The notes under the pieces were generated by a model, which was not told the origin of the DNA, searched no databases, and saw only the letters and a list, made by a program, of their open reading frames with translations. From NCBI GenBank assembly GCA_963674965.2, contig CAXXFL010000002.1, positions 32,001 to 96,000 of the forward strand: a DNA stretch of 64,000 nucleotides, written 5' to 3'. Both the position numbers and the translations under genes were made by a program. The stretch's first letter is position 1, and each line of letters opens with the position of its first letter. Of this stretch, positions 27,552-64,000 are shown piece by piece. Source of the stretch: a bacterium (GTDB lineage Bacteria; RBG-13-61-14; DATKZS01).

Positions 27552-28091
27552 ATGTATAGAGAGATGGATGAAGACAGGAAGAAGGCAGGGATTGTTGGGG
27601 AGACGGAGGGAGCCCGTAGGGCGACCGGAGTCTCCCCAACCGGGACGGCCGAGCCGGAGGACACTCCTGCCAAGCGGCCCGAGCGGGTGGGGGCGCCGAT
27701 CATTCTTCCCGAGCCGGAGGTCCCGGAAAAGCCCGCCCGGCGGCGCTTCACCGCGGCTTACAAGCTCGCAATCCTCGGGAAGGCCGACGCCTGCTCGGGG
27801 CATGGCGAGGTCGGCGCCCTGCTGCGCCGGGAGGGCCTTTATTCGTCGCACCTGACGGCCTGGCGCAAGCAGCGGGACGAGGGGGCCTTGAAAGCGCTTT
27901 CGCCCGTAAAGCGGGGCCGCAAGCCCAAGGCCAAAAACCCGCTGGCCGATGAAGTGGCCCGCCTCGAGCGCGAGAACGGGAAGCTCCAAAAGCGGCTCGA
28001 ACAGGCCGAGATGATAATCGACTTCCAAAAAAAAGTTGCCGATCTGCTGGGGATACCCCTGGCCAAGCCGCCCGGCGAAGAGAGCGAATGA
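27552..28091 (+). CDS. IS3-family transposase OrfA
   Basis: Protein identical to 3688-4227. Confidence 0.85.
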   Translation: MYREMDEDRKKAGIVGETEGARRATGVSPTGTAEPEDTPAKRPERVGAPIILPEPEVPEKPARRRFTAAYKLAILGKADACSGHGEVGALLRREGLYSSHLTAWRKQRDEGALKALSPVKRGRKPKAKNPLADEVARLERENGKLQKRLEQAEMIIDFQKKVADLLGIPLAKPPGEESE

Positions 28092-37411: not shown

Positions 37412-38227
37412 ATGAAAAGGTTATCTTGCTGGAACTGGATCACTATTAACAAAGCCACTGGCATCGCATTGGCGGTTCTATTTTCAATGTTCATGGCGGC
37501 CTTCATGGGCTGCGGTAAAGGAATGGATAGGACCGGCTCGGACGGCGACGCCGGCGCGGCAGTTTCAGGAAAACAAGCTTCATCCTCATCGGTGAAAGAA
37601 CGGGCTGTCCCCGCCAATACCGCAACCGAGCGCAAAGAGCCTAGGAAGGGCATACAACGCTCCCCCGTTGGAGAAACCAATCTGCGGGCGAAAATACGCG
37701 GACTCGCCTCTTCCAAAAACAAGGCTGAGGCTAATGAATCCATTGATTCGCTCACCGATATTTTCGAAGGTGGAGATAATAATCATGACCTGGCCACAAG
37801 GACCCTGGCGGCGGCGGCCTTGGCCGAACTAAGCAAGGCCGAGGAAGACCGAGCGGCGGCTGTTGCCTCCCTCGAGCCTCTCCGCAAGGCCCTATTTCGC
37901 GATAAGAGCGCGGTGGTCCGAGCCTCGGCCGCGCGCTCACTGGGGGCGAGCGGCTACATCGAGTTCAAGTCCCCCCTTGAGTTAGCCATGAAGACCGACG
38001 CGTCGCTCCTTGTCCAGACGGCGGCTTCCGAGGCCCTTGAAAAGCTAACGGGCGAGACGTTAGTCTCTCCGGTCGAGAAGGCGCTAGCCGAGTCCACCAT
38101 TCCGACCAGGCGCTCCCTTTCCTCTTCGGTCTCATCGGAGTGTATCCCCAGGGAGTTATTCGAGTCGCTAAACGAGCACCTCTTGATTCTCGATCCCGAG
38201 AACGCCGAGCGATCGATATGCAAGTAG
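37412..38227 (+). CDS. HEAT-repeat lipoprotein
   Basis: Hydrophobic stretch ending in lipobox-like FMGC; HEAT-like VVRASAARSLG and LVQTAASEALEKL; strong SD GAGGAGG. Confidence 0.75.
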   Translation: MKRLSCWNWITINKATGIALAVLFSMFMAAFMGCGKGMDRTGSDGDAGAAVSGKQASSSSVKERAVPANTATERKEPRKGIQRSPVGETNLRAKIRGLASSKNKAEANESIDSLTDIFEGGDNNHDLATRTLAAAALAELSKAEEDRAAAVASLEPLRKALFRDKSAVVRASAARSLGASGYIEFKSPLELAMKTDASLLVQTAASEALEKLTGETLVSPVEKALAESTIPTRRSLSSSVSSECIPRELFESLNEHLLILDPENAERSICK

Positions 38228-38250
38228 GCAAGGAAACAAGGAGCGAAGCC

Positions 38251-48062: not shown

Positions 48063-48512
48063 ATGAAAAGAAAAGAAAAGAAAATATTGTTAGTTTATAA
48101 AGACTTTGATGACGTTTTTCAAATTGAAAGCGTTTGGGCTGAGAAAATGGATGAATATTATAGAATTGTCAATATTCCATTTTTTGCTAAAAACGTCGCC
48201 TATGGTGACATCGTTGCAGTGGAAAACGACGGGGGAAGTCTATACTTTGATAGCCTAATAAAACCTTCAGGCCACAGCACAATTCAAATGATAATTAATG
48301 ATCCTAATGAATTGAAAGGCATTGGAAATACATTAGTTAGTATGGGATGTGACTGGGAAGAAAGTCATATCAAAGGATACATTTCGATAGACATTCCTAA
48401 AAATGTTGATTATACACAAATAAGAAAATATTTAGAAGAAGGATTGTCGCAAAATAAATGGGACTACAGGGAAGCATGTTTAAGTGATGAACATCGAGAG
48501 AGTACGAAATAG
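48063..48512 (+). CDS. Cognate immunity protein, DUF4265-like
   Basis: AT-rich ORF 2 bp after the toxin stop; ESVWA...NIPFFAKNVAYGDIV...SGHSTI pattern. Confidence 0.75.
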   Translation: MKRKEKKILLVYKDFDDVFQIESVWAEKMDEYYRIVNIPFFAKNVAYGDIVAVENDGGSLYFDSLIKPSGHSTIQMIINDPNELKGIGNTLVSMGCDWEESHIKGYISIDIPKNVDYTQIRKYLEEGLSQNKWDYREACLSDEHRESTK

Positions 48513-48665
48513 CGTTTTCCGCGCAGGCGGGTGCCATCTACGTTATGCTAAAGACCTTGTGGCTCTCGCGAGGCGAGACAGGAGTACCGTTATAAGCTTC
48601 TCATGGTTTTTTGAAAATAGGCAAAATGAGCAATTACTCAAAGAAAAGAAAGAAGAGCATGGGTT

Positions 48666-49232
48666 ATGATATATCATAATACAGAATTGATTAAAGAGCA
48701 TTACGAAACCAACTGGAATAATGCGGCAGCAATAAAAAAATGGAATAAAGGGCCAATTCATGAATTGCCTCAATTTTTTAGCGTCCTTGAGTTTAGGCCA
48801 ACCATAAAAAGGGATATGTGGACATATGCAACATGTGGAATGTCAACACTTCAAGATCGGGAAAAGATCGAATTACATATACACTCACCAGAAAGAAATG
48901 AAGGCCTCGTAGAGCTATTAACCGTAGTAGTACATTTTCACGCAACTGATAGTAGTCTTGGTCTATGGCATACCGTTAATTTTGGAAGAGGATGGTTGCC
49001 TGATTCCAATTGTGAATATGGCCTTATTTCATTGCCTTATCTTGACGGTCCAGGCTTTGAAATATTAAAGAATAACAATGATGCCGTTTCTTTTTATTGG
49101 TTAATTCCAATTACAAAAGATGAAGTGGACTATAAAATAAAAAATGGAATAGAATGTCTTGAAGATGCTTTAGAGAAAGCAAACGTTAAATATCTTGATA
49201 AATACAGGGCCAGTGTTATCGGCTGTGAATAG
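48666..49232 (+). CDS. Suppressor-of-fused (SUFU) family immunity protein, orphan
   Basis: WTYATCGMS...IEL...LGLWHTVNFG...FYWLIPITKDE. Confidence 0.8.
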   Translation: MIYHNTELIKEHYETNWNNAAAIKKWNKGPIHELPQFFSVLEFRPTIKRDMWTYATCGMSTLQDREKIELHIHSPERNEGLVELLTVVVHFHATDSSLGLWHTVNFGRGWLPDSNCEYGLISLPYLDGPGFEILKNNNDAVSFYWLIPITKDEVDYKIKNGIECLEDALEKANVKYLDKYRASVIGCE

Positions 49233-49284
49233 GCAACCCGAAGACGGGCATTGTACACTTTAGTTGTCAATATAGATGTAACTC

Positions 49285-49298
49285 CGCTCTTTGAAAAC
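49285..49298 (+). promoter_or_regulatory. boxA-like motif before cassette 1
   Basis: CGCTCTTTGAAAAC, starting 34 nt before the arm. Confidence 0.55.
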
Positions 49299-49318
49299 TT
49301 GTCATTATTACTTCCGTC

Positions 49319-51139
49319 GATTCCGACTTTGACGGCTTCACGGACGGGTGGGAGGTGGAGTATAGCGATAGCCTTGGGTTCGATCCGGTGGTGGTGGAGT
49401 GCGATACGGCGGTGGCGGATTTCGACGGGGACGGGATGGGGGCGATTATCGAGGCGAGGCTGGGGACGGACCCGAGGTTGGCCGACTCGGATGGGGACGG
49501 GATCGACGATTATTGGGAGGTCGTGGCCGGGCTGGACCCGCTGGTGGACGACGCGGCCGATGACCCCGACGGCGACGGGAGGACCAACCTCGAGGAATAC
49601 CTGAACTCGGGGTATTTCTATACCAACCCATTCAATCCGGACACCGACGGCGACGGGCTGTGCGACGGCGTGACCTCCGTCATGGACGGAGCGACCCAGC
49701 TTTGCGGGCCTGGGGAGGGAGACTCGGCGACGCCCGAGCTGGACGCGGCGCGGCTACGGCTCCTGGCCGAGAGCGCCATCGGCGAGCTGACCCTCGGGGA
49801 CGGCGACACCTGGGCGGACGAGCTCGAGGAGGGCGACACTCTTAAGCTGTCCGTGGCGGGGGCGCTGGACGCGGGGACGTACACGGTGCGCTTCGATAAT
49901 GGGTCGGGCGCGGTTTACGCCATCGAGGCGTACGTGTCCGAGGGCGCGACATATATATTTGTGGACACGGGAGACCTCGGGGACGACGCCGGCTCCGGCT
50001 CATACGACATTGACGTGGTTGACGACTCGGGCTCGTGCCTCCTCGACTCGGGCGCCGCCTCGGTCAATATCTCCCAGCGGCTCTACCTCCACTACGGCCT
50101 CCACTCCCCGGTGGTCGCCACCAACTCCGACGGCGAGACCGTCTGGCGCCGCGCCTATCTCCCCTTCGGCGCCGACTTCGCCGGCTCGCCCTCCCACCCC
50201 CTCACCATCGCCAACTCCTCCATCACCCACGGCTTCGTCGGCCGCCGCTCCGACAACGACGTCGGCCTCTACCAACTCGGCGCCCGCTGGTACGACCCCG
50301 ACCTGGGGCGGTTCGTGAGCGTCGACCCGGTGCCGGGGTTCATCAATCAGTACGCTTACGCGAACAATAATCCATTTAAATATCAGGACGCGAGTGGGAG
50401 GCAATATGGCTCTTCAGGATATACAAGTTGGGCGGAGTGTAGTGGGACTTATGGCAATCCGGACAGCGATTATTGCACTGGAAAAGCAAATGAAAATTAT
50501 GATCCAGAAAAATTAAAGACTATTTTATACTGCACTTCAGGGGCTGCGCATGGGGAGTTGGCCTTCATGTATGATTCAGCAGATGCAGCTGCAAATTGGT
50601 GGAATCCAATTTACCAATATGGTACGTATAAGGGAATATACGAAGGGGGTGACTGGTTAATAAATGCTGATAAAGACGCAGCCTATGAAGCATGGATATC
50701 CAAGCCAAACAATGAGATATGTTACGATATTGGATATGGCACGGCAGCTTTAGGTGCTTTAGCCGCGCCATTGGCCAAAGGTAAGGTCGTTCCTAATGGT
50801 AATAAGCCAATAACTAAACCGAACGCAACTAAAGGCTGGAAAGTAGGAGACCCTATTAATAATTTGACTAGTAAAGGGAAAGTCCCTACATGGGATACAG
50901 TCAGGAAAAGATTTTGGAAAAATGAAGCAAGCAATAATCCAGGAAATTATAACGCTTCAAACCTTGCAAGAATGCGTGAAGGTTTAGCGCCTCAAAGAAT
51001 CAATCCCGGAACGGGCTCGCTTGAAAGTATGGAGTTGCATCATAAGCCTCCACAAAGAAAAGGCGGTTTATTTGATTTTGAACCATTATGGCCTAATGAA
51101 CATTCTGGGATCGATCCATATAGACATACCGGAAACTAA
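49319..51139 (+). CDS. Orphan cassette 1: long homology arm plus HNH/EndoVII (LHH-like) toxin
   Basis: Arm matches the main gene from 46309; toxin NLARMREGLAPQ...SMELHH...WPNEH; no convincing start or SD. Confidence 0.8.
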   Translation, partial: DSDFDGFTDGWEVEYSDSLGFDPVVVECDTAVADFDGDGMGAIIEARLGTDPRLADSDGDGIDDYWEVVAGLDPLVDDAADDPDGDGRTNLEEYLNSGYFYTNPFNPDTDGDGLCDGVTSVMDGATQLCGPGEGDSATPELDAARLRLLAESAIGELTLGDGDTWADELEEGDTLKLSVAGALDAGTYTVRFDNGSGAVYAIEAYVSEGATYIFVDTGDLGDDAGSGSYDIDVVDDSGSCLLDSGAASVNISQRLYLHYGLHSPVVATNSDGETVWRRAYLPFGADFAGSPSHPLTIANSSITHGFVGRRSDNDVGLYQLGARWYDPDLGRFVSVDPVPGFINQYAYANNNPFKYQDASGRQYGSSGYTSWAECSGTYGNPDSDYCTGKANENYDPEKLKTILYCTSGAAHGELAFMYDSADAAANWWNPIYQYGTYKGIYEGGDWLINADKDAAYEAWISKPNNEICYDIGYGTAALGALAAPLAKGKVVPNGNKPITKPNATKGWKVGDPINNLTSKGKVPTWDTVRKRFWKNEASNNPGNYNASNLARMREGLAPQRINPGTGSLESMELHHKPPQRKGGLFDFEPLWPNEHSGIDPYRHTGN

Positions 51140-51207
51140 TTTGCCAAGCTCGTAAAATGGTCTACAGTTAAGGGAATGAAAATACTATTTACAAGAATAA
51201 TTGGAGT

Positions 51208-51705
51208 ATGAAGGTGCCAGATTTTCAAAAATATTTTATGGAGTCAGGTGGCAAACCAATCGTGTATAATGGCAAAGAAATTCGGATGATGGATGAAATA
51301 CCTGTTCTTAACAGAGATGCCTTTGCTATTACTATTGAAAAATGTAATAGCGAGTGGAAACAAGGCATTTCCTTAGTAGTAAATGGCATTTTTCAAATAA
51401 ATAAGCAGAGGATTAAAAGGGGCATCCTTTTATGGCAAGACACTGCCCCAAGAACTTCTCAGTTTAAGCTGTCCTTAAATAAACCAGGTAAATTAATCAT
51501 AAAGAATGTTTGGGACACTGGTAATGGCGTCATCGAGTCATGGCATCATGGCGCAGGGATTATCGTTGAGGAGATAAAAAACGGAAAACGTTATCACTGC
51601 AATGATGGACATCCCGATGACAATTTCGACGATATAGTATTTATTATCACTAAAATCACTGGTAATACCAGCGAGCAGGTCGGCGCGTTTGATTTTTTGG
51701 GGTGA
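51208..51705 (+). CDS. Putative immunity protein 1
   Basis: AT-rich 165-aa ORF with GGAG SD directly after the toxin. Confidence 0.7.
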   Translation: MKVPDFQKYFMESGGKPIVYNGKEIRMMDEIPVLNRDAFAITIEKCNSEWKQGISLVVNGIFQINKQRIKRGILLWQDTAPRTSQFKLSLNKPGKLIIKNVWDTGNGVIESWHHGAGIIVEEIKNGKRYHCNDGHPDDNFDDIVFIITKITGNTSEQVGAFDFLG

Positions 51706-51738
51706 CCCGGGCTTAGGTTACAGCGTTACACGTAATTT

Positions 51739-51752
51739 CGCTCTTTGAAAAC
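51739..51752 (+). promoter_or_regulatory. boxA-like motif before cassette 2
   Basis: CGCTCTTTGAAAAC, starting 34 nt before the arm. Confidence 0.55.
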
Positions 51753-51772
51753 TTGTCATTATTACTTCCGCC

Positions 51773-53428
51773 GATTCCGACTTTGACGGCTTCACGGACG
51801 GGTGGGAGGTCGTGGCCGGGCTGGACCCGCTGGTGGACGACGCGGCCGATGACCCCGACGGGGACGGGAGGACCAATCTCGAGGAATACCTGAACTCGGG
51901 CTACTTCTACACCAATCCCCTGAATCCCGATACCGACGGCGACGGGCTGTGCGACGGCGTGACCTCCGCCATGAGCGGCGAGACCGTGCTCTGCGGGCCG
52001 GGGGAGGGCGACTCGGCGACGCCCGAGCTGGACGCGGCGCGGCTTCGGCTCCTGGCCGAGAGCGCCATCGGCGAGCTGACCATCGGGGACGGCGACACCT
52101 GGTCCGATGAGCTCGAGGAGGGCGACACCCTCAAGCTGGCCGTGGCGGGGGCGCTGGACGCGGGGACGTACACGGTGCGGTTCGATAATGGGTCGGGCTC
52201 GGTTTACGCCATCGAGGTGGCCGTGTCCGAGGGCGCGACTTATATATTTGTGGACACGGGAGACCTCGGGGACGACGCCTCGGGAAATTTCGACATTGAC
52301 GTGGTGGACGACTCGGGCGCGAGCCTCCTCGACTCGGGCGCCGCCTCGGTCAATATCTCCCAGCGGCTCTACCTCCACTACGGGCTCCACTCCCCGGTGG
52401 TCGCCACCAACTCCGACGGCGAGACCGTCTGGCGCCGCGCCTACCTCCCCTTCGGCTCCGACTTCGCCGGCTCGCCCTCCCACCCCCTCACCATCGCCAA
52501 CTCCTCCATCACCCACGGCTTCGTCGGCCGCCGCTCCGACAATGACGTCGGCCTCTACCAACTCGGCGCCCGCTGGTACGACCCGGACCTGGGGAGGTTC
52601 GTCAGCGTCGATCCAGTTGCCGGGGGCATCAACCAGTACGCCTACGCGAACAATAATCCATTCCGATATTATGACGGAGACGGCCGGGAGTCGGAGTTCG
52701 TGAGCGGAATATACGGCGCTCTTTGGACGTACGCGGACGCGGTAAACTCGAATGAGACCACCGCTTGTATCAGCGCCGGAGCTCATGGAGTGCTAAGGAC
52801 GTTTTACTCGACGGGTGAAGGCGTCTATACCATGGCCCGGCATCCAGTCGATACCCTGTATGGCACGGGTGAGACTATTGGTTATGGGGCTTATTTATAT
52901 CTTGATGAGCCCGAGGTGTTGTACTACGGGGCAGTAAACCAGTATAATGCCTTCCTGGCAAGCGATCCTGACGAGCAAGCGTTAATCGGCTCGGAGTTAG
53001 CGGCCAACATTGCGCTCAGCGCGACCGGCGGCCCGAAGAGCATTGGCAAATCAGGGAAAGCATTAAGTGGCGCGGCTAGTAAAACAAGCAAGGCGGCGAA
53101 GGCGGCAAGAGCCGCAAACAAGGCCAGGGGGACAAAGGCAAGAAAAATTCTACGTAAAAACTTAGGTGACCCGCCCTCACATTTAAAAAAGCCACATGCC
53201 CACCATGACTTGCCGGTGGAATTTGAAGATAGATTTAATAAATTAGGCATTAATGATATAAACGAGGCGCAATATGGCCGATGGGTAGAAGGAGATAATA
53301 ACCATCTAAAATGGAGCAGAGACTTTAACAAAGAATGGAGAAAATTCTTCGATAGTAACCCAACAGCTTCTGATAAAGAAGTATTAAATTTCATGCATAA
53401 TTTAAGAAATAATCCAAATTTTCAGTAG
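51773..53428 (+). CDS. Orphan cassette 2: arm with a 165-bp deletion plus AHH/DUF2380-like nuclease toxin
   Basis: HAHHDLP...GRWVE..NHLKWS..FNKEWRKFF. Confidence 0.78.
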   Translation, partial: DSDFDGFTDGWEVVAGLDPLVDDAADDPDGDGRTNLEEYLNSGYFYTNPLNPDTDGDGLCDGVTSAMSGETVLCGPGEGDSATPELDAARLRLLAESAIGELTIGDGDTWSDELEEGDTLKLAVAGALDAGTYTVRFDNGSGSVYAIEVAVSEGATYIFVDTGDLGDDASGNFDIDVVDDSGASLLDSGAASVNISQRLYLHYGLHSPVVATNSDGETVWRRAYLPFGSDFAGSPSHPLTIANSSITHGFVGRRSDNDVGLYQLGARWYDPDLGRFVSVDPVAGGINQYAYANNNPFRYYDGDGRESEFVSGIYGALWTYADAVNSNETTACISAGAHGVLRTFYSTGEGVYTMARHPVDTLYGTGETIGYGAYLYLDEPEVLYYGAVNQYNAFLASDPDEQALIGSELAANIALSATGGPKSIGKSGKALSGAASKTSKAAKAARAANKARGTKARKILRKNLGDPPSHLKKPHAHHDLPVEFEDRFNKLGINDINEAQYGRWVEGDNNHLKWSRDFNKEWRKFFDSNPTASDKEVLNFMHNLRNNPNFQ

Positions 53429-53436
53429 GCACCGTT

Positions 53437-54102
53437 ATGATTAAATTTTACTCCATTTCAGATAACTCCTTTGATACAAGAGGCTTCCCCTGGATATCGG
53501 AAATAACGAAAGGAATTACCATGTTGCCCCCCTGCGAAAAATGCGGAGGCCGGAGATTCTATCCTTCAGGTGATATCTCCGTTATTTTTGAGCCGGATAA
53601 GGGTACCAAGTGGGCTGATGTTTTAGGTTGCGGAAGCCAAATGTTATTAATTATCTCAGAAAAAGTCGTCGCAGCATGGTCGAAAGAAAACATTGGAGAA
53701 ATCCCCCTTCACAGGGTTAAACTCCAAAAGCCTTATCCAAAAAAGCTTGAGGGGACAAAGCCTCCAAAGTACTATTGGGTGGATGGAGAAAAACTCTGTG
53801 GCGCCGAGCTTGACTTACTCGCCAGTGGATTTCTTGATGCTCGCTATTGTGAAAGCTGTGGACGATTGTTGTACGATATTACTAAAACATATACATTGCA
53901 GCACTCAAAAATATGCCCTTATATATTCAAGCCTGACAGTTGGGACGGTAAAAACCTTTTCACTACCAATTTATCGTATCTTAAGTTCTTTTGTACGGAT
54001 GCTCTTATAGATTGCGCGAAAAAGTACAAGCTAACCAACTTTCGTTTCACACCCGTTGAGGAAGGAAGCGCGATAGGACATAAAGGGATTAAATATTTGT
54101 AG
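53437..54102 (+). CDS. Putative immunity protein 2 with two CxxCG motifs
   Basis: CEKCGG and CESCGR; ends YKLTNFRF; starts 8 bp after the toxin. Confidence 0.72.
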   Translation: MIKFYSISDNSFDTRGFPWISEITKGITMLPPCEKCGGRRFYPSGDISVIFEPDKGTKWADVLGCGSQMLLIISEKVVAAWSKENIGEIPLHRVKLQKPYPKKLEGTKPPKYYWVDGEKLCGAELDLLASGFLDARYCESCGRLLYDITKTYTLQHSKICPYIFKPDSWDGKNLFTTNLSYLKFFCTDALIDCAKKYKLTNFRFTPVEEGSAIGHKGIKYL

Positions 54103-54129
54103 GCCTTAGATTAAAAGCTCGCGATCATT

Positions 54130-54143
54130 TGATCTTTGAAAAC
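54130..54143 (+). promoter_or_regulatory. boxA-like motif before cassette 3
   Basis: TGATCTTTGAAAAC, starting 34 nt before the arm. Confidence 0.55.
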
Positions 54144-54163
54144 TTGCCTCTGTTCTTTCCATC

Positions 54164-55936
54164 GATTCCGACTTTGACGGCTTCACGGACGGGTGGGAGG
54201 TGGAGTACGCGGATAGCCTTGGGTTCGATCCGGTGGTGGTGGAGTGCGATACGGCGGTGGCGGATTATGACGGCGACGGGATGGCGGCCATTATCGAGGC
54301 GAGGCTGGGGACGGACCCGAGGTTGGCCGACTCGGATGGGGACGGGATCGACGATTATTGGGAGGTCATCGCCGGGCTGGACCCGCTGGTGGACGACGCG
54401 GCCGAGGACCCCGACGGGGACGGGAGGACCAACCTCGAGGAGTACCAGAACTCGGGCTACTTCTATACCAACCCCCTGAATCCCGATACCGACGGCGACG
54501 GCCTTTGCGACGGCGTGACCTCCGTCATGAGCGGCGAGACCGTGCTCTGCGGGCCGGGGGAGGGCGACTCGGCGACGCCCGAGCTGGACGCGGCGCGGCT
54601 ACGGCTCCTGGCCGAGAGCGCCATCGGCGAGCTGACCCTCGGCGACGGCGACACCTGGGCGGACGAGCTCGAGGAGGGCGACACCCTCAAGCTGTCCGTG
54701 GCGGGGGCGCTGGACGCGGGGACGTACACGGTTCGGTTCGATAATGGGTCGGGCTCGGTTTACGCCATCGAGGTGGCCGTGTCCGAGGGCGCGATTTATA
54801 TCCTGGTGGACACGGGAGACCTCGGGGACGAGGCCTCGGGAAATTTCGACATTGACGTGGTGGACGACTCGGGCTCGAGCCTCCTCGACTCGGGCGCCGC
54901 CTCGGTCAATATCTCCCGGCGCCTCTACCTCCACTACGGTCTCCACTCCCCGGTGGTAGCCACCAACTCCGACGGCGAGACCGTCTGGCGCCGCGCCTAC
55001 CTCCCCTTCGGCTCCGACTTCGCCGGCTCGCCCTCCCACCCCCTCACCATAACCAACTCCTCCATCACCCACGGCTTCGTCGGTCGCCGACAAGACAACG
55101 ACGTCGGCCTCTACCAGTTGGGAGCAAGGTGGTACGACCCGGACCTGGGGAGGTTCGTGAGCGTCGAACCAATTCCAGGGTTCCTTAACCAATACGCCTA
55201 TGCTGGTAACAATCCATTTGTTTACCAGGACGATAGTGGTATGTATATAGAGACCGCTATCGATATTGGTTTCATTTCATATGACATTTATGAGCTACAG
55301 AAAGACCCTTCAAGCGGGTGGAACTGGGCGGCCCTCGGCGCTGACGCGCTTTGCGCTGCCCTCCCGGTCGTTACGGGAGGCGGCGCCGCGGTTCACGCTA
55401 TCGGCGGTCTCAACAAGGCGGCTGACGCCGTCCAGGCCGCCGATAAACTTATTGACGCGGGAAAAGCGGTCGATAAGGGCATTGACGCCGCCAGGGGCGT
55501 CGATAAAGGAATTGACGCGGCCAAGGTTGGTTCTGAAGTCGCCAGTCATGCTGATGAGGCCGTTGACGCCGCCAAAGGCTATGAAAGATTGGCTGGAAGT
55601 AACGTCAACCATATAAACGGAGCAATCGCGGAGCAGCATGGATGGCAACGAGCTTTGCAGGATGGACACATTGGTATAAAGCCACCCGGGAAAGTGACGT
55701 CGAAAGGACCGGATTTTATTACATATAGTCGTAAGGATGATTTGATAATGGTTTGGGATGCAAAGTTTAGAAGTGGTGGTAACTTCCCATCATCCATATC
55801 AGCGAGTAAAATGAATAAATGGATGCCTTATGTGGAGGATGCCATAAAAAATATGCCGGCCGGTGAGGCTAAAACCTGGGCCGAAAGAGCGTTAAAAAAT
55901 GGAAATATCAGAGGTAAATTATTTCCGTGGCCTTAA
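54164..55936 (+). CDS. Orphan cassette 3: long arm plus PD-(D/E)xK nuclease toxin
   Basis: GAIAE...KGPDFITY...VWDAK after an Ala/Asp/Lys-rich linker. Confidence 0.78.
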
Positions 55937-55962
55937 TAATAAGGATGATTCTGGTGATTGAA

Positions 55963-56457
55963 ATGGAATGGATAGAGTTTATTCGAATTAGGGAATGGTC
56001 TCCATTAGCAAGTCTTAACATTGACATGGAAATAATTATTGAAGGCAGATATAAAATTAGTGATAATCAATATCTCCTATCATCTCCTTGCAACAAGGAT
56101 TTTATAGATGCCGCTAATGGACCGTTTGTTACTGCGCTTGTTTGGGCATGTAGTGAAGGGGCTTTCAGGAGAGTGTACTTGGCAGAAATTGAAAAGGACG
56201 ATGGAAATATCGTAAGTCCTCCAGACGAAATATTGCCGGAAGCTGGTAAATATACATATAGAAAAATTCATGAGGGCTTAGTTAAATTAAATTGTAAAGG
56301 AATTTTAGAAACTGCCAGCTATCGTATCGCCACGGATGGAGCCTTTTTAAATAGGAGTATTGAATCAGAAATTGCTTCATACCATTTTCGTGGAAGAGAA
56401 TATGATGATGAAGAAGAACCATTCGTAATCACGTGGAACTTGATATTATACAGGTGA
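55963..56457 (+). CDS. Putative immunity protein 3
   Basis: MEWIEFIRIREWSP...; homolog of 60334-60828, which fixes the start. Confidence 0.72.
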   Translation: MEWIEFIRIREWSPLASLNIDMEIIIEGRYKISDNQYLLSSPCNKDFIDAANGPFVTALVWACSEGAFRRVYLAEIEKDDGNIVSPPDEILPEAGKYTYRKIHEGLVKLNCKGILETASYRIATDGAFLNRSIESEIASYHFRGREYDDEEEPFVITWNLILYR

Positions 56458-56469
56458 ATTCTGCGGCGG

Positions 56470-56680
56470 GTGGGCTATACGGTTTTGCATGAAAACCGTG
56501 TGGCTCTCGCGAAGCGAGACGGGTATACTGGTATCAGCTTCTCACGGTTCTTTGAAAAATCAATTTAAGCTTTTTGCTGCATGTAGTTGGAGTCGCAAGC
56601 TTCGACATGACGTGAGGCGCTAAGCCAGTTCGCTCCGCTCACCCACTCATTCGTAAAGAATGAGATGGGCCACCCAAGAG
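56470..56680 (+). repeat. Structured inter-cassette spacer, type B (copy 1)
   Basis: Hairpins ACGGTTTT/AAAACCGT, TCTCGC/GCGAGA, AAGCTT..AAGCTT and CCCACTCATTC/GAATGAGATGGG. Full copies at ~60840-61050 and ~62790-62993, partial copies at ~48545-48620 and ~58230-58295. Confidence 0.85.
56546..56559 (+). promoter_or_regulatory. boxA-like motif before cassette 4
   Basis: GGTTCTTTGAAAAA inside the type B spacer. Confidence 0.5.
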
Positions 56681-57964
56681 GACGAGCTCGAGGAGGGCGA
56701 CACTCTCAAGCTGGCCGTGGCGGGGGCGCTGGACGCGGGGACGTACACGGTTCGGTTCGATAATGGGTCGGGCTCGGTTTACGCCATCGAGGTGGCCGTG
56801 TCCGAGGGCGCGACTTATATTTTTGTGGACACGGGAGACCTCGGGGACGAGGCCTCGGGAAATTTCGACATTGACGTGGTGGACGACTCGGGATCGAGCC
56901 TCCTCGACTCGGGCGCCGCCTCGGTCAATATCTCCCAGCGCCTCTACCTCCACTACGGTCTCCACTCCCCGGTGGTCGCCACCAACTCCGACGGCGAGAC
57001 CGTCTGGCGCCGCGCCTACCTCCCCTTCGGCGCCGACTTCGCCGGCTCGTCCTCCCACCCCATCACCATCGCCAACTCCTCCATCACCCACGGCTTCGTC
57101 GGCCGCCGCTCCGACAATGATGTCGGCCTCTACCAACTCGGCGCCCGCTGGTACGACCCCGACCTGGGGAGGTTCGTGAGCGTAGATCCGGTTTCCGGGT
57201 ACCTCAATCAGTACGCCTACGCGAACAATAATCCATTCGTCTATCAGGACGGCAATGGTCGTGATCCCTTTGGTTTGGCCGGTTTGATGATTTACGCGGC
57301 CGCCGGAATCTCGGTTGGGGTTACTGATGGTATAGTATACGGCCTGGGTAAGGTCGGCGGGATTCCTGAGAAAGAGGTTGAAAAATCACGTAATCAATTA
57401 CATAACGAGGTTTGGGATGCCGCCACATTGCCAGGGGATATCTGCTTTGCCTTAAGTTTTACTGAAGGTGTTTATAAAATCGCAAAAAATCCTCGTGGGA
57501 TTTATAATGGAGTTAAGGGATCATGGAATAGGCTTAAGGGATTATTTAAAGGGTCGGCTGACGACGCGGCCGGCGGAGTTGATGATGCTGTCAAATGGGT
57601 TGATGAAAATGCCCATATGAGTCAAAAGGCAAAAGCATATAATGATTCAGCCACAGGAGCGCGCTCGAACGTCGCTACACAAAAAGGACAGGCACCACAG
57701 ATCACTCGCACGTTAGAGGATGGTACAACAAAAGGAGTTAGATTTGATGGAGTTGAAGGGAATGCTTTAATCGACAGAAAGCTCTCAGTTGTAACAACGC
57801 AAAAGGCAAAAGACCAAGCACTTCGACAATCACAGGCATTGATGCAGAATAATTTGACTGGAAAGTGGGAAGTTCCCAATCAAGCAGAAGCAAATCGAGC
57901 GAAAAAATTGTTTGAAGAATTGGGGATAGATAATATTTTAGTGGAGGTTGTAAATGGACCTTAA
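56660..57964 (+). CDS. Orphan cassette 4: short arm plus restriction-endonuclease-fold toxin
   Basis: Arm begins 56681 (main gene 46807); VRFDG...IDRK...QALRQ...WEVP. Confidence 0.78.
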   Translation: MRWATQEDELEEGDTLKLAVAGALDAGTYTVRFDNGSGSVYAIEVAVSEGATYIFVDTGDLGDEASGNFDIDVVDDSGSSLLDSGAASVNISQRLYLHYGLHSPVVATNSDGETVWRRAYLPFGADFAGSSSHPITIANSSITHGFVGRRSDNDVGLYQLGARWYDPDLGRFVSVDPVSGYLNQYAYANNNPFVYQDGNGRDPFGLAGLMIYAAAGISVGVTDGIVYGLGKVGGIPEKEVEKSRNQLHNEVWDAATLPGDICFALSFTEGVYKIAKNPRGIYNGVKGSWNRLKGLFKGSADDAAGGVDDAVKWVDENAHMSQKAKAYNDSATGARSNVATQKGQAPQITRTLEDGTTKGVRFDGVEGNALIDRKLSVVTTQKAKDQALRQSQALMQNNLTGKWEVPNQAEANRAKKLFEELGIDNILVEVVNGP

Positions 57965-58202
57965 AGAAGCGATATCAAAAGCCTTGATTGAGACACTTTT
58001 ATTTTTTGAATTTAGCGACGAAGATATCATTCATCCGGATATATCAATTGCCCAGATAGAACAAGTCGCTGCAATTCTTAAGGAGATGGATGAAAATGGA
58101 AAGATGGAATTTATAAAAACATGCTCAGAAATGGCAATGGAATACAGTGGTGAAAAATATAATTTCATTATTAGCATAGGAGAAAATCTTGGATTGATAT
58201 AA
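57954..58202 (+). CDS. Putative immunity protein 4
   Basis: Acidic 82-aa ORF overlapping the toxin end, with GGAGG SD. Confidence 0.7.
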   Translation: MDLKEAISKALIETLLFFEFSDEDIIHPDISIAQIEQVAAILKEMDENGKMEFIKTCSEMAMEYSGEKYNFIISIGENLGLI

Positions 58203-58294
58203 GAATGACTTGAGCGTGGGCGGGTGACGGGTGGGCCATACGGTTTTGTAAGAAACCGTGTGGCTCTCGCGAAACGAGACAGGTGTGCCAGTAT

Positions 58295-58324
58295 AAACAG
58301 GTAACACACAAACAGGTAACACAC
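58295..58324 (+). repeat. 15-bp tandem direct repeat
   Basis: AAACAGGTAACACAC x2. Confidence 0.8.
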
Positions 58325-58501
58325 CAAAGGACCTTGAAATATAACCCCTTGGTTTACGGTTATACCTCAAACCGTCTTGGAGGACAGCCCGCTTTCATGT
58401 TTACATATAGCTCCGCTATATGGGCGAGCATAGCGAGCAGGTCATTGCGATTAAATTACCGGGAATAACCTATGCTTAGGTTGTCGATATAGATGTAACT
58501 C

Positions 58502-58515
58502 CGATCTTTGAAAAC
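58502..58515 (+). promoter_or_regulatory. boxA-like motif before cassette 5
   Basis: CGATCTTTGAAAAC, starting 34 nt before the arm. Confidence 0.55.
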
Positions 58516-58535
58516 TTGCCTCTGTTCCTTCCGCC

Positions 58536-60311
58536 GATTCCGACTTTTACGGCTTCACGGACGGGTGGGAGGTGGAGTATGCGGATAGCCTTGGGTTCGA
58601 TCCGGTGGTGGTGGAGTGCGATACGGCGGTGGCGGATTTCGACGGGGACGGGATGGCGGCCATTATCGAGGCGAGGCTGGGGACCAACCCGCTGTTGGCC
58701 GACTCGGATGGGGACGGGATCGACGATTATTGGGAGGTCATCGCCGGGCTGGACCCGCTGGTGGACGACGCGGCCGATGACCCCGACGGCGACGGGAGGA
58801 CCAACCTCGAGGAGTACCAAAACTCGGGCTACTTCTACACCAATCCCCTGAATCCCGATACCGACGGCGACGGGCTGTGCGACGGCGTGACCGCGGTCAT
58901 GGACGGCGAGACCTTGCTCTGCGGGCCTGGGGAGGGAGACTCGACGACGCCCGAGCTGGACGCGGCGCGGCTACGGCTCCTGGCCGAGAGCGCCATCGGC
59001 GAGCTGACCCTCGGGGACGGCGACACCTGGTCCGACGAGCTCGAGGAGGGCGACACTCTCAAGCTGTCCGTGGCGGGGGCGCTGGACGCGGGGACGTACA
59101 CGGTTCGGTTCGATAATGGGTCGGGCGCGGTTTACGCCATCGAGGTGGCCGTGTCCGAGGGCGCGACTTATATCCTGGTGGACACGGGAGACCTCGGGGA
59201 CGACGCCGGCTCCGGCTCTTACGACATTGACGTGGTGGACGACTCGGGCTCGAGCCTCCTCGACTCGGGCGCCGCCTCGGTCAATATCTCCCAGCGCCTC
59301 TACCTCCACTACGGGCTCCACTCCCCGGTGGTCGCCACCAACTCCGACGGCGAGACCGTCTGGCGCCGCGCCTACCTCCCCTTCGGCTCCGACTTCGCCG
59401 GCTCGTCCTCCCACCCCATCACCATCGCCAACTCCTCCATCACCCACGGCTTCGTCGGCCGCCGACAAGACAACGACGTCGGCCTCTACCAGTTGGGAGC
59501 AAGGTGGTACGACCCGGACCTGGGGAGGTTCGTGAGCGTCGAACCAATTCCAGGGTTCCTTAACCAATACGCCTATGCTGGTAACAATCCATTTGTTTAC
59601 CAGGACGATAGTGGTATGTATATAGAGACCGCTATCGATATTGGTTTCATTTCATATGACATTTATGAGCTACAGAAAGACCCTTCAAGCGGGTGGAACT
59701 GGGCGGCCCTCGGCGCTGACGCGCTTTGCGCTGCCCTCCCGGTCGTTACGGGAGGCGGCGCCGCGGTTCACGCTATCGGCGGTCTCAACAAGGCGGCTGA
59801 CGCCGTCCAGGCCGCCGATAAACTTATTGACGCGGGAAAAGCGGTCGATAAGGGCATTGACGCCGCCAGGGGCGTCGATAAAGGAATTGACGCGGCCAAG
59901 GTTGGTTCTGAAGTCGCCAGTCATGCTGATGAGGCCGTTGACGCCGCCAAAGGCTATGAAAGATTGGCTGGAAGTAACGTCAACCATATAAACGGAGCAA
60001 TCGCGGAGCAGCATGGATGGCAACGAGCTTTGCAGGATGGACACATTGGTATAAAGCCACCCGGGAAAGTGACGTCGAAAGGATCGGATTTTATTACATA
60101 TAGTCGTAAGGATGATTTGATAATGGTTTGGGATGCAAAGTTTAGAAGTGGTGGTAACTTCCCATCATCCATATCAGCGAGTAAAATGAATAAATGGATG
60201 CCTTATGTGGAGGATGCCATAAAAAATATGCCGGCCGGTGAGGCCAAGACCTGGGCCGAAAGAGCGTTGCGCAATGGCGATGTCGCGGGCCGAATCTTTC
60301 CGTGGCCGTAA
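58536..60311 (+). CDS. Orphan cassette 5: long arm plus PD-(D/E)xK toxin nearly identical to cassette 3
   Basis: Same toxin except GSDF for GPDF and the last ~13 residues. Confidence 0.78.
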
Positions 60312-60333
60312 AATTAAGAATAGGGAGATCATT

Positions 60334-60828
60334 ATGGAATGGAAAGACTTAGTGAAAATAAAGGAATGGTCTCCAGCAAATAATCTTAATATTGAATATA
60401 AGAAAATTAAAAAAGGATTACATAAAATCAGTGAAAATCAATATCTCCTGTTGTCGCCTTATAATGAGAATTTTAAAGAGGCTCCTGGCGGCCCGTTTGT
60501 CAATGCGCTACTTTGGTCATGCAGTGAAGGGGCCGTAAGAAGGGCATATTTAATGGAAATAGAGCAGGACGATGGTACTATTATCAAGCCACCAGATGAG
60601 ATAATGCCTGAGCCGGGTAGATATACTTATAAAGAGATTCTTGTTGGTTTGAAAAGACTTGGATGCAAGGGTATTTTAGAACATGCTAGTTACCGTATCG
60701 CTAAGGATGGGGCCTTTATACATAGGTCTATTGAATCTGAAATTGCTTTATATTCTTTTCGTAATATGGATTTTGATGACAGTGAAGAACCTTACGCTAT
60801 CAGATGGAATTTAGTATTATATAGATGA
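60334..60828 (+). CDS. Putative immunity protein 5 (diverged homolog of immunity 3)
   Basis: MEWKDLVKIKEWSP...WNLVLYR; GGAG SD. Confidence 0.72.
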   Translation: MEWKDLVKIKEWSPANNLNIEYKKIKKGLHKISENQYLLLSPYNENFKEAPGGPFVNALLWSCSEGAVRRAYLMEIEQDDGTIIKPPDEIMPEPGRYTYKEILVGLKRLGCKGILEHASYRIAKDGAFIHRSIESEIALYSFRNMDFDDSEEPYAIRWNLVLYR

Positions 60829-60839
60829 GTTCTTCGGCG

Positions 60840-61050
60840 AGTGGGCCATACGGTTTTGCAAGAAACCATGTGGCTCTCGCGACGCGAGACGGGTATACTG
60901 GTATCAGCTTCTCACGGTTCTTTGAAAAATCAATTTAAGCTTTTTGCTGCATGTAGTTGGAGTCGCAAGCTTCGACATGACGTGAGGCGCTAAGCCAGTT
61001 CGCTCCGCTCACCCACTCATTCGTAAAGAATGAGATGGGCCACCCAAGAG
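60840..61050 (+). repeat. Structured inter-cassette spacer, type B (copy 2)
   Basis: Near-identical to 56470-56680. Confidence 0.85.
60916..60929 (+). promoter_or_regulatory. boxA-like motif before cassette 6
   Basis: GGTTCTTTGAAAAA. Confidence 0.5.
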
Positions 61051-62313
61051 GACGAGCTCGAGGAGGGCGACACTCTCAAGCTGGCCGTGGCGGGGGCGCT
61101 GGACGCGGGGACGTACACGGTTCGGTTCGATAATGGGTCGGGCTCGGTTTACGCCATCGAGGTGGCCGTGTCCGAGGGCGCGACTTATATTTTTATTGAC
61201 ACGGGCGACCTCGGGGACGACGCCTCGGGAAATTTCGACATTGACTTGGTGGACGACTCGGGCTCGAGCCTCCTCGACTCGGGCGCCGCCTCGGTCAATA
61301 TCTCCCAGCGGCTCTACCTCCACTATGGTCTCCACTCCCCGGTGGTCGCCACCAACTCCGACGGCGAGACCGTCTGGCGCCGCGCCTATCTCCCCTTCGG
61401 AGGCGACTTCGCCGGCTCGCCCTACCGGCCCATCACCATTAATAACGACGCTATTACCCACGGCTTCGTCGGCCGCCGCTCCGACAATGACGTCGGCCTC
61501 TACCAACTCGGTGCCCGCTGGTACGACCCGGACCTGGGGAGGTTCATGAGCGTCGATCCGGTGCCGGGGTTCATCAATCAGTACGCTTACGCCAATAACA
61601 ATCCAATAAGATATCATGATGCAAATGGAAGAAGTGTAGTAGTCCTCGTATGGATGCTTGCAACTTCAGAAAACGAGACGGCTAATGAGCTTGGGAATTG
61701 CATTAGCGCGGCCGCTGCGGGAGAATTAGAAGGTGGAAAAGACTTTATAGTTGGCACTGTAACAAGCTTGGGAGAAGCTGAGACCTATTATAAGCCAGGT
61801 GCTTTGAGAATTGCAGAATCCGGGTATGAAGTTTATAAAAATAGGGAGCAGATCAAAGATGATTTCCTGAATAAAGATTCAGTTGGACAAGCTAAGGACA
61901 TTGGGCGCGTTTTTGGCGCAGCAGGTGGAGCAATATTACTGACAAAAGCAACTAAGGATTTAAGCGAATTTGCTCAGAAAAAAGCCCCGGGAATAAAAGA
62001 TCTGCCACCTTTAAGACAGCAGTATGTTGATGAAGTAAAAGGGTTAAGGAATAAAATACCAAATATGAGAAAAGCAGGAATGTCGTCTGAAGAGATAGCA
62101 AGAAAATTACATGCTGAACGAAGAAATCTCGGAATTAAATATAAAGACATGACGCCTCCTGAAGAGCTCGAAAGAATTACCGCAAGGAATATAAGAGATT
62201 GTGGTGATCCACTTGGTCCAACAATTGATCATTTAAGAAACGTCAAGGGGAAAACCTGGGAAGAAATAATCGAAAGCGCCTGTACTCCTGGCGGAAAGGA
62301 TTTAGGCTATTGA
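61030..62313 (+). CDS. Orphan cassette 6: short arm plus a basic toxin domain of unassigned family
   Basis: LRQQYVDEV...EEIARKLHAERR..GIKYK..TP...GDPLGPT...KTWEEIIESA follows the RHS core. Confidence 0.72.
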   Translation: MRWATQEDELEEGDTLKLAVAGALDAGTYTVRFDNGSGSVYAIEVAVSEGATYIFIDTGDLGDDASGNFDIDLVDDSGSSLLDSGAASVNISQRLYLHYGLHSPVVATNSDGETVWRRAYLPFGGDFAGSPYRPITINNDAITHGFVGRRSDNDVGLYQLGARWYDPDLGRFMSVDPVPGFINQYAYANNNPIRYHDANGRSVVVLVWMLATSENETANELGNCISAAAAGELEGGKDFIVGTVTSLGEAETYYKPGALRIAESGYEVYKNREQIKDDFLNKDSVGQAKDIGRVFGAAGGAILLTKATKDLSEFAQKKAPGIKDLPPLRQQYVDEVKGLRNKIPNMRKAGMSSEEIARKLHAERRNLGIKYKDMTPPEELERITARNIRDCGDPLGPTIDHLRNVKGKTWEEIIESACTPGGKDLGY

Positions 62314-62771
62314 AAATGACTGATAATATTTATCTCCAATGTTATGATGAATACAATAAATATGCATGCTATAATGTGATTAATTTTAATATATCATATT
62401 ATAATAAAGAACAAATAGCTGTTAACAAAAACATGGTCCAAAGCGGGTGGTATTCAAGTTATAGTGGCCATTTAATTTTATTATATATAATTAATGGCAA
62501 GTTGATATTAAAAGTAAATGAATTTCATTTCGAATTATGTGAAGATATCATTGTCGATGTCTCAGGCCCTTGGGACAATCGCACTCTAAAAATATATTTA
62601 AAAAAACGAGAAGTACTTACTATCATGTATACTACAATTAATAGGCCATACGATAATGATATAACGCCATTTATAGAGGATGATGATTTTGATTTATGTT
62701 TATTTGCACGCAACCTGTTAATGGACAAAGAGCGAAGAAATCGAGTAATAAACATCAAACGTTATATATAA
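62310..62771 (+). CDS. Putative immunity protein 6
   Basis: Very AT-rich 153-aa ORF overlapping the toxin stop. Confidence 0.65.
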   Translation: MKMTDNIYLQCYDEYNKYACYNVINFNISYYNKEQIAVNKNMVQSGWYSSYSGHLILLYIINGKLILKVNEFHFELCEDIIVDVSGPWDNRTLKIYLKKREVLTIMYTTINRPYDNDITPFIEDDDFDLCLFARNLLMDKERRNRVINIKRYI

Positions 62772-62789
62772 ATAGAGACATGGTGGATG

Positions 62790-62993
62790 TCCATTACGGT
62801 TTTGCATGAAAACCGTGTGGCTCTCGCGGAGCGAGACAGGTGTACCGGTATAAGCTTCTCACGGTTCTTTGAAAATTCAATTGAGCTTTTCGCATACAGG
62901 TGGAGCCGAAAGCTTCGACATGACTTGAGGCGCTAAGCCCGTTCGCTCCGCTCACCCACTCATTCGTGCCGAATGAGGTGGGCCACCCAAGAT
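62790..62993 (+). repeat. Structured inter-cassette spacer, type B (copy 3, diverged)
   Basis: Same hairpins with altered loops (GTGCC versus GTAAA; GGA versus GAA/GAC). Confidence 0.8.
62863..62876 (+). promoter_or_regulatory. boxA-like motif before cassette 7
   Basis: GGTTCTTTGAAAAT. Confidence 0.5.
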
Positions 62994-64000
62994 GACGAGA
63001 TCGAGGAGGGCGACACCCTCAAGCTGGCCGTGGCGGGGGCGCTGGACGCGGGGACGTACACGGTGCGCTTCGATAATGGGTCGGGCTCGGTTTACGCCAT
63101 CGAGGTGGCCGTGTCCGAGGGCGCGACTTATATATTTGTGGACACGGGAGACCTCGGGGACGACGCCGGCTCCGGCTCATACGACATTGACGTGGTGGAC
63201 GACTCGGGCTCGAGCCTCCTCGACTCGGGCGCCGCCTCGGTCAATATCTCCCAGCGGCTCTACCTCCATTACGGGCTCCACTCCCCGGTGGTCGCCACCA
63301 ACTCCGACGGCGAGACCGTCTGGCGCCGCGCCTATCTCCCCTTCGGCGCCGACTTCTCCGGCTCGCCCTCCCACCCCCTCACCATCGCCAACTCCTCCAT
63401 CACCCACGGCTTCGTAGGCCGCCGACAAGATAATGACGTCGGCCTCTACCAACTCGGCGCCCGCTGGTACGACCCGGACCTCGGCAGGTTCGTGAGCACA
63501 GACCCGGTGTCTGGCCTTCTGAACCAGTACTCTTACGCCAATAACAATCCGTTCGTTTATCATGATGCTTCCGGTTTGTTTTTCGAACAATTTACCACCG
63601 GAGTCGTCAAACAAGCCCTCAGCCCATGGATAAAAATCAATGAGGTTGTAAAGGTGCCGGGACTTGATACCGCAATGTATTACATAGAGGGCACGGAGTC
63701 GGAAATCTTGGCATGGGAAGATACTCATGACTTTTTCACCGGTACCGCCCATGAGGATTGGTGGGCCATGGCCGATACTTATGAACAAGGGTCGGCGGGC
63801 TATTGGGCCTATGGCGTCGGCGGCATGTTCGCATGTACGAACGATATACAGTTTTTTGGCAGTATAGCTGAACTAGGGGCTATGGGCCTTGGGGCCAAAG
63901 CTGTCGCCGGTGAGGAAATGGCAGCCGCAAATGCGGGGAAATCATCTAAAGCTTCTCAATTATCAAAAAATAAAGCAAAAGGAGACGCTTTTCGTGACGA
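62973..64000 (+). CDS. Orphan cassette 7 (3'-partial): short arm, RHS core and start of a new toxin C-terminus
   Basis: Open frame from ATG 62973 (MRWATQDDEIEEGD...) through NNPFVYHDASG to ...SKNKAKGDAFRD at the window edge; missing from the ORF track because it has no stop. Confidence 0.8.
   Translation, partial: MRWATQDDEIEEGDTLKLAVAGALDAGTYTVRFDNGSGSVYAIEVAVSEGATYIFVDTGDLGDDAGSGSYDIDVVDDSGSSLLDSGAASVNISQRLYLHYGLHSPVVATNSDGETVWRRAYLPFGADFSGSPSHPLTIANSSITHGFVGRRQDNDVGLYQLGARWYDPDLGRFVSTDPVSGLLNQYSYANNNPFVYHDASGLFFEQFTTGVVKQALSPWIKINEVVKVPGLDTAMYYIEGTESEILAWEDTHDFFTGTAHEDWWAMADTYEQGSAGYWAYGVGGMFACTNDIQFFGSIAELGAMGLGAKAVAGEEMAAANAGKSSKASQLSKNKAKGDAFRD

Follow-up and report, generated by a model that had tools for sequence, protein, structure and literature searches.

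The window analyzed here, a 64,000-nt stretch of a bacterial genome (contig CAXXFL010000002.1, positions 32,001 to 96,000, forward strand), contains an Rhs orphan array in which a 12-nt motif, GNTCTTTGAAAA, resembling the boxA site of ribosomal RNA (rrn) operons, stands before every orphan cassette. The array comprises a full-length gene and headless copies of its 3' end, each with a variable tail and a small downstream gene; some of the tails differ and some are duplicates. An Rhs-core gene with core-plus-variable-tail fragments, and a small gene after each, is the architecture of an Rhs orphan toxin-immunity array. The toxin and immunity functions of the array genes are mostly assigned from position, and family matches among them are limited to HNH, DUF4265, SUFU, and a weak DNase.

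The orphan cassettes and their spacers

The full-length gene (38140..48060, + strand, as are the first two immunity-type genes, the spacers, motifs, and cassettes below) encodes 3306 aa with TSP3 repeats, an Rhs core, and a C-terminal HNH domain. Its segment 46306-47330 is the source of the homology arms, and a C-rich patch in its core (47068..47290), a candidate Rho loading (Rho utilization, rut) site, is repeated in each core-containing arm. The gene has no motif at the position matching the arm leaders. It is followed by the first immunity-type gene (DUF4265, 48063..48512) and by a truncated spacer of the kind termed type B (48559..48617), in which a degenerate motif, GTTTTTTGAAAA (48606-48617), is directly followed by a gene rather than an arm. 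This copy, with the conserved C (C5) changed to T, lies 60 nt before a SUFU-family orphan immunity-type gene (48666..49232).

Cassette 1 (49319..51139) has a long arm, a core, and a toxin tail with a weak, below-cut-off colicin/pyocin DNase match, and its putative immunity gene lies at 51208-51705. The motif of its type A leader, GCTCTTTGAAAA (49286..49297), is 54 nt past the upstream stop and 33 nt before the arm. Type A leaders also precede cassette 2 (51773..53428; arm with an internal deletion; putative immunity gene 53437-54102), with GCTCTTTGAAAA at 51740..51751, and cassette 3 (54164..55936; putative immunity gene ending at 56457), with GATCTTTGAAAA at 54131..54142. Cassette 4, with a short arm (56681..57964; putative immunity gene 57954-58202), follows a type B spacer (56465..56680) made up of a dispersed element resembling repetitive extragenic palindromic (REP) sequences, a hairpin, the motif (56547-56558), and a palindromic end at the arm junction. 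The next spacer (58237..58535) is of type B, interrupted just before its motif by a type A leader with the junction word AACAGGTAAC; the type A motif (58503-58514) leads cassette 5 (58536..60311; putative immunity gene ending at 60828), the toxin of which nearly duplicates that of cassette 3. Type B spacers with GTTCTTTGAAAA at 60917..60928 and 62864..62875 precede two further short-arm cassettes, cassette 6 (61051..62313; putative immunity gene ending at 62771) and cassette 7 (62994..64000), which continues beyond the window. Three more motif-led arms lie past the window edge in the host genome (G000), at G000:C2 97196, 99165, and 101692. Contigs of one sample, possibly the window's own source, cover the motifs at 51740 and 54131 and show no differences.

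Between the preceding stop codon and each motif lie 29-301 nt, and 1.4-1.9 kb separate the motif from the next immunity-type gene. The original prediction had placed a motif before each of the seven cassettes, all on the sense strand and in two unrelated spacer types, and a degenerate copy before the SUFU gene. All of this was recovered, at coordinates one base higher than predicted. The same one-base offset applies to the distance from motif to arm, predicted as 34 and 131-135 nt and measured as 33 nt at each of the four long arms and as 130-134 nt at the three short ones; the split between long and short arms stood.

Several repeated and possibly mobile sequences accompany the array. The word AACAGGTAAC occurs at window positions 58296 and 58311 and in 30 copies in G000, marking insertion junctions of REP-like elements and type A leaders, some of them mid-arm, and may be a mobile-element end. 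The cassette at 52618-54192 recurs, with the same toxin-immunity pair, in a second array (G000:C6 746.6-745.9k), and the SUFU-type gene with its leader (48666-49320) recurs at C6 737.4-736.6k, which points to exchange between arrays. About 1 kb past the last arm fragment is a large serine recombinase gene (G000:C2:102758-104104; L179:8759-10102), followed on C2 by a reading frame that resembles, by appearance, a restriction-modification methylase subunit. Elsewhere in the window, repeated elements with a 338-aa reading frame occupy 3688-5240, 11478-13030, 27552-29104, and 33518-34534, the last with IS110-family transposase domains.

Identity and conservation of the motif

The seven exact matches to GNTCTTTGAAAA in the window (49286, 51740, 54131, 56547, 58503, 60917, and 62864) are all on the + strand, against a chance expectation of 0.04 on average, and seven were reached in none of 100 shuffles. 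A genome-wide count, proposed with the original prediction, gave 35 exact copies, compared with four each for the reversed and complemented controls. Twenty of them precede arms of the TSP3-Rhs family, one is in the rrn leader, five identical copies are in a repeated element like an insertion sequence (IS), four are in another dispersed repeat, one is in an arm-less type B spacer, and four are in other reading frames. The motif is found within 200 nt upstream of all 20 orphan arms of the family and at the matching place of none of its three full-length genes.

The host genome has one rrn operon, and its leader site, GCTCTTTGAAAACT, 116 nt before the 16S gene, is identical to the array motif; a host site unlike the motif would have spoken against the predicted Nus antitermination. 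The internal transcribed spacer (ITS) carries a variant, GTTCTTTGACAA, and a relative has the same site in its rrn leader (GTTCTTTGAAAACT at -111). Among the seven window copies only position 3 varies. The positions of boxA described as contacting NusB, G2, C5, and U6 (PMC3177189, from the part of the article available), are kept in all seven and in all 20 arm-linked genome copies, while the copy at 48606 lacks C5. The motif at 54131 with its upstream bases reads TGATCTTTGAAA, matching the Bacillus subtilis consensus AUGAUCUUUGAAA, which binds NusB according to the accessible portion of PMC13753749. In Myxococcus xanthus, GCTCTTTGAAA is described at rrn and in the leader of a CRISPR array (bioRxiv 2026.07.09.737519, excerpt). 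Genes for NusA, NusB, one NusG, S10, and Rho are present in the host, as is one inositol-monophosphatase-family gene, a candidate SuhB.

Two observations concern the surroundings of these genomic copies. At G000:C1:910808-912476 (- strand, partly L001), two truncated TSP3-Rhs arms, both led by a type A leader with its motif, come to within about 200 nt of the rrn promoter region on its upstream side, which may be a real insertion or an assembly join. A third dispersed repeat consists of a hairpin followed by GCTCTTTGA[ACT]AA (G000:C1 1078860, C2 128040 and 323622, C3 165184 and 316526, C5 227243, C6 6706, and C7 894282), possibly a boxA ahead of a non-coding RNA; four of its copies are at the 3' end of a common, mobile-looking reading frame of 350-450 aa.

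All window copies belong to two repeated spacer families, and the motif could have been copied passively with duplicated spacers and REP-like elements, without any function of its own; gene conversion could homogenize such copies. The type A leaders (13 leaders, 12 haplotypes) argue against this. TCTTTGAAAACT and the first G are invariant, as are 12 of 12 core columns, while pairwise identity drops to 65% in the 20 nt upstream and 76% in the 19 nt downstream (column-shuffle test, P = 6.5e-5, a value inflated by kinship). Type B, a dispersed REP-like element with 15 aligned copies, is less variable around the motif, with flanks conserved at about 89%. Compared with the 56547 copy, the six arm-linked type B spacers have 30 mismatches in 282 flank positions and none in 72 motif positions. 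Among seven copies without an arm, one keeps the exact motif and the others have 1, 1, 2, 4, 6, and 7 mismatches, the last two being apparently truncated at the motif. The predicted persistence of the motif amid diverging flanks is therefore seen mainly in type A. The hairpins predicted to lie upstream are conserved in type B only, and the folds of the type A leaders share no structure. Passive copying is also at odds with unrelated DNA upstream of the cassettes of another genome, with synonymous sites frozen in a second Rhs family, and with a motif variant that tracks host lineage (all below), and we regard it as quite improbable. The motif is a real, selected signal, found on the sense strand only and conserved at the nucleotide level above its flanks.

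Two other roles for such a signal were considered. The leader site of the host rrn operon forms a pairing of about 27 nt with a strand after 16S, and the array motif might likewise serve RNA folding or processing. A search for partners tolerating G-U pairs gave only scattered 12-nt matches, none present in every cassette, with several at the DP codons of the core and some in full-length genes too. Rfam returned only two weak matches, to an unrelated microRNA family and far below cut-off. A processing site is thus very unlikely. Alternatively, TTGAAA in the motif might be the -35 box of a promoter, and one antisense match (TTTTCA-17-TATATT) does overlap the copy at 49286. It is found at one of the seven copies only, and no sense -10 box lies at the right spacing. 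An upstream sigma-70 consensus promoter, searched for within 110 nt, is present in the rrn leader and absent from all 20 arm-linked copies. The motif does not serve as the -35 box of any + strand promoter, and the promoter found in relatives is an element of its own that lies upstream of the motif. The possibility that each motif marks a promoter, raised in the original prediction as a point that would count against it, is extremely remote. Distance from a promoter does not exclude boxA function, because the rrn ITS site is also far from one.

Related Rhs families and other lineages

Of 11 Rhs loci from five genomes of the 13-genome phylum, the exact motif precedes the core in four (two in G012 and one each in G007 and G008) and not in the other seven. 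In G008 and G012 the motif lies within coding sequence. Scans of the collection added further loci (L051/L096, L095, L097, and L098); one scan seed included the peptide of the motif, but L095-L098 read ELFEN, RLFEN, or RFFDK there and hence were not caught by it. In the ten in-frame copies, the third-codon positions of the motif are all invariant (3/3) though the amino acids change, whereas none of 13 third positions is invariant in the adjoining conserved GPR and DQLGSTR codons. In eight of 12 in-gene copies, two of them near-identical, a promoter (TTGAC[AT]-17-TAxxxT) ends 24 nt (once 36 nt) before the motif; the remaining four have lost the promoter stretch. The proximity to a promoter typical of rrn- and CRISPR-type antitermination is therefore found in the related in-gene family and not at the arm-linked copies of G000. 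No start led by a Shine-Dalgarno (SD) sequence is conserved at one position behind the motif in this family. Three of four G012 orphans start just 10-15 nt or so upstream of the motif, as if erosion had halted there, and L096 has a second copy at an arm start, 17 nt past an immunity stop, the layout seen in the window. As a separate observation, L039, L040, L037, and L036 have a hydrophobic stretch and P-R-x-A-x-A ahead of the Rhs core, resembling an internal signal peptide, and the promoter and boxA are encoded in or beside this stretch.

Arrays for a wider survey were chosen by Rhs-core matches, blind to the motif, and a generic motif pattern was sought within 1.2 kb upstream. Exact sense matches preceded 13 of 108 orphan cores (44 loci), compared with 0 for antisense, 1 for the reversed pattern, and 1.2 for shuffled patterns. 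Many arrays have no motif. All 13 matches come from four of the 17 genomes of the G017 phylum, which we take to be Bacteroidota. In G048, all six orphan arms begin 13-48 nt after G[TC]TCTTTGAA, the DNA further upstream is unrelated between cassettes, and the full-length gene is without the motif; the rrn leader of the same genome reads GATCTTTGAAAG. The rrn leader of G082 is interrupted by a contig end.

Three Pseudomonas loci carry the gamma-type TTTAA form: L083, where it lies 62 nt after the first immunity gene; L090, at an arm start 25 nt past an immunity stop; and L120, a hemagglutinin-type locus with a PT-HINT fragment that was selected for its four clustered motifs. No exact motif was found at 19 other Pseudomonas rhs loci picked by core matches, a weak test with only four orphan cores. 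Searches of Escherichia coli genomes with the Pseudomonas core DNA and of plasmids with the window core protein gave no match, one locus was matched among viral contigs, and a de novo 8-mer screen of orphan leaders returned AT-rich words only. The motif variant follows the host lineage, and the motif before toxin cassettes is a recurrent, lineage-matched feature of a minority of arrays.

The position of the motif at or near arm junctions in several lineages, the flanking REP-like palindromes, and the serine recombinase gene about 1 kb past the last C2 arm would also suit a recombination or nicking site in the DNA by which the 5' ends of cassettes are set during capture or shuffling. Several features speak against such a site: the donor genes in G000 and G048 are without the motif, which is not a palindrome and occurs strictly on the sense strand, it can be anywhere from about 13 to 134 nt away from the junction, and it follows the host rrn variant and keeps a fixed distance behind a promoter in relatives. 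We consider a recombination site highly improbable.

Proposed transcription across untranslated toxin fragments

A 150-nt segment of the Rhs core has about 76 C to 27 G, and the excess of C over G is above the 99.99th genome percentile in six of the seven window arms and at the 99.88th in the seventh. The excess is synonymous, with C at 29 of 31 four-fold sites in 47140-47289 compared with 46% genome-wide. A C-rich, G-poor profile is that of a Rho loading site. Just before the end of the core, several unrelated Rhs families of the genome show a sharp shift from G-ending to C-ending codons (window 47140-47289, all arms, G000:C2 11.7k and 13.8k, and C4 370-378k), and the shift, placed before the toxin tail, has the look of a Rho checkpoint built into the gene.

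The reading that we favor for the array combines these features. The array would be transcribed as one long transcript, in which translated immunity genes alternate with 1.4-1.9 kb of arm and toxin tail mostly free of ribosomes, and the extremely C-rich patch in each arm would load Rho. The Nus complex would be lost at each translated immunity gene, and the boxA 29-301 nt past each immunity stop would reload the rRNA-type complex on the polymerase, shielding the arm from Rho so that the polymerase can pass through the orphan toxin and arrive at the next immunity gene. Judging from sequence comparisons, it is probable that the array motif is a real boxA, an RNA site for the host NusB-S10, and that it acts in this way. 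The comparative evidence fits a functional boxA, and the antitermination predicted originally is supported as an interpretation; the direction of the effect, antitermination rather than repression, is inferred.

On whether the RNA behind the motif would be free of ribosomes and sensitive to Rho, the arms give mixed signs, with headless frames and a C-rich patch on the one side and an SD-like GTG in the long arms on the other. Of the prediction that the arms are untranslated and C-rich, the latter part held, and the former is better supported for short arms than for long ones. The ATG of the short arms has no SD (free energy, dG, +0.5) and is lost in two genome copies, and the arm ATGs of G048 have no SD either; neither G048 nor the short arms have a credible start at the spacing known from suhB. 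Reading of the copies also led to the rejection of a prfB-like frameshift at CTT-TGA, since they share no open upstream frame or SD.

The main rival is silencing of the suhB type, in which a boxA-Nus complex prevents ribosomes from loading onto the orphan toxin frame, and Rho stops the transcript at the C-rich patch. The motif would then be a safety catch on orphan toxins, and the immunity genes would use other promoters. In the part of the text available, a boxA close to a start codon can inhibit translation and favor termination by Rho, and both suhB and a ParE-like toxin gene are repressed by boxA even when the SD is 100 nt away (PMC5725501); the repression at suhB is also treated in a review (PMC12360218). 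In the window, a strong C-rich patch follows the motif, the long arms have a candidate GTG start with an SD-like site at +69 to +72, and weak promoter-like sites precede several immunity genes. The sole array copy directly before an immunity gene (48606) has lost the conserved C, which fits a repressive site but also a Nus relay. The lack of an SD in the short arms and in G048 does not suit silencing, nor do the relatives, which have a promoter right before the in-gene boxA and no conserved SD-led start behind it; a promoter built only to be terminated is less economical. Silencing is thus unlikely as the role of the motif, although it can coexist with relayed antitermination.

Several observations weigh against the relay. 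The 20 arm-linked copies represent two spacer lineages rather than 20 events, and the seven window copies, as members of these two duplicated families, are not independent, so within-genome statistics overstate the case. Most surveyed arrays are motif-less, including those of 13 of the 17 genomes of the Bacteroidota phylum, and one of the 13 survey matches is inside an immunity gene; the motif is found in none of 13 genomes of the G016 class and, within the G045 phylum, at none of 29 orphan cores. In the host genome, the orphans of five other Rhs loci, which belong to different families, are without an exact motif (at the C6 838-856 kb locus, as judged from a both-strand motif list). Equally C-rich cores occur in most motif-less Rhs loci of this genome, and the motif-bearing arrays of other lineages are mostly not notably C-rich; C-richness therefore does not predict the motif, nor does it require one. 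In the long arms, a GTG with an SD-like site (dG -8.6) follows the motif at 69-72 nt. Five of the seven immunity genes have weak promoter-like matches (9 of 12) upstream, and read-through may therefore be unneeded there. Separately, the orphans of a second Rhs family (G000:C2 11730 and 13777; C4 378557) are motif-less, and the REP-like leader that they share places a strong GGAGG 15 nt ahead of an ATG in frame; they are possibly translated, an alternative solution.

Transcription through untranslated DNA by means of boxA has precedents. The array resembles the rrn boxA/Nus complex (NusB-S10, NusA, NusG, and SuhB) in sequence, sense orientation, non-coding position, and host factors. It differs in having a site once per cassette within a protein-coding array, far from a consensus promoter in this genome, without a paired processing strand and, in type A, without a conserved upstream hairpin. 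Stringer et al., in 2020, are said to have described boxA in CRISPR leaders, where the Nus machinery reportedly protects the untranslated array from Rho. As far as that account goes, both systems borrow host Nus machinery for an untranslated conflict-system array, but one leader site serves there, while here a site precedes every mixed coding/non-coding unit and, in relatives, is written into the toxin coding sequence.

In suhB and the Citrobacter koseri ParE-like gene (Baniulyte et al., 2017; PMC5725501), as described in the sections at hand, a boxA also lies upstream of a toxin reading frame, but the gene there is translated and repressed, whereas a headless fragment and then an immunity gene follow here. 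Entries of a supplementary table of the same article list a boxA 28 bp before a YD-repeat gene of Shewanella W3-18-1 and one 40 bp before a hemagglutinin gene of Pseudomonas aeruginosa PA7; the words "rhs" and "immunity" are absent from its main text. The array architecture is that of the orphan cdiA-CT/cdiI and rhs-CT/rhsI modules (Poole et al., 2011; PMC3150448), of which the available portion reports that, in E. coli EC93, the orphan toxin was undetected and the orphan immunity was made from one long transcript; no read-through mechanism was encountered in that portion. Salmonella has a promoter inside rhs upstream of the toxin tail, as in the related family, but the tail is translated there as part of a type II toxin-antitoxin pair (PMC7043789, in the passages available), whereas in the related family the internal promoter is followed by a boxA and by no conserved SD-led start. 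"Rho" is absent from the main text of PMC7043789, and nothing on termination was found in the accessible part of a 2026 Stenotrophomonas Rhs preprint. Among the papers listed by full-text searches of a collection with few subscription papers, none was found that links boxA or Nus factors to Rhs, contact-dependent inhibition (CDI), or orphan immunity arrays.

The regulation by boxA and Nus factors is known, and polymorphic toxin arrays would be a further setting for it. Expression of orphan immunity genes from long transcripts is known as well; on their way through untranslated toxin fragments, these transcripts should be terminated by Rho, and a published account of their passage was not found. 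In this bacterium and in a minority of the toxin arrays of unrelated bacteria, the motif probably lets transcription cross untranslated toxin pieces to reach the immunity genes. A 12-nt host signal per cassette makes this a mechanism testable by single point mutations. If true, the Nus complex would have polymorphic toxin arrays among its clients, besides rRNA and CRISPR arrays, and the motif would be a sequence marker for which stored immunities are active. Selection moreover acts on the boxA site in lineages remote from the gamma-proteobacteria of earlier studies. It is conceivable, though doubtful, that several phyla independently evolved an "immunity-only" transcription logic from host parts, a synonymous C-rich Rho trap and boxA. 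The trap in the Rhs core would kill ribosome-free transcripts before the toxin tail, and boxA, before the orphan or in the gene behind an internal promoter, would load the rRNA Nus complex, which would block ribosomes on the toxin frame and carry the polymerase onward to the immunity gene. Under such a logic, which of its stored immunities a cell expresses would depend on gaining or losing a 12-nt site.

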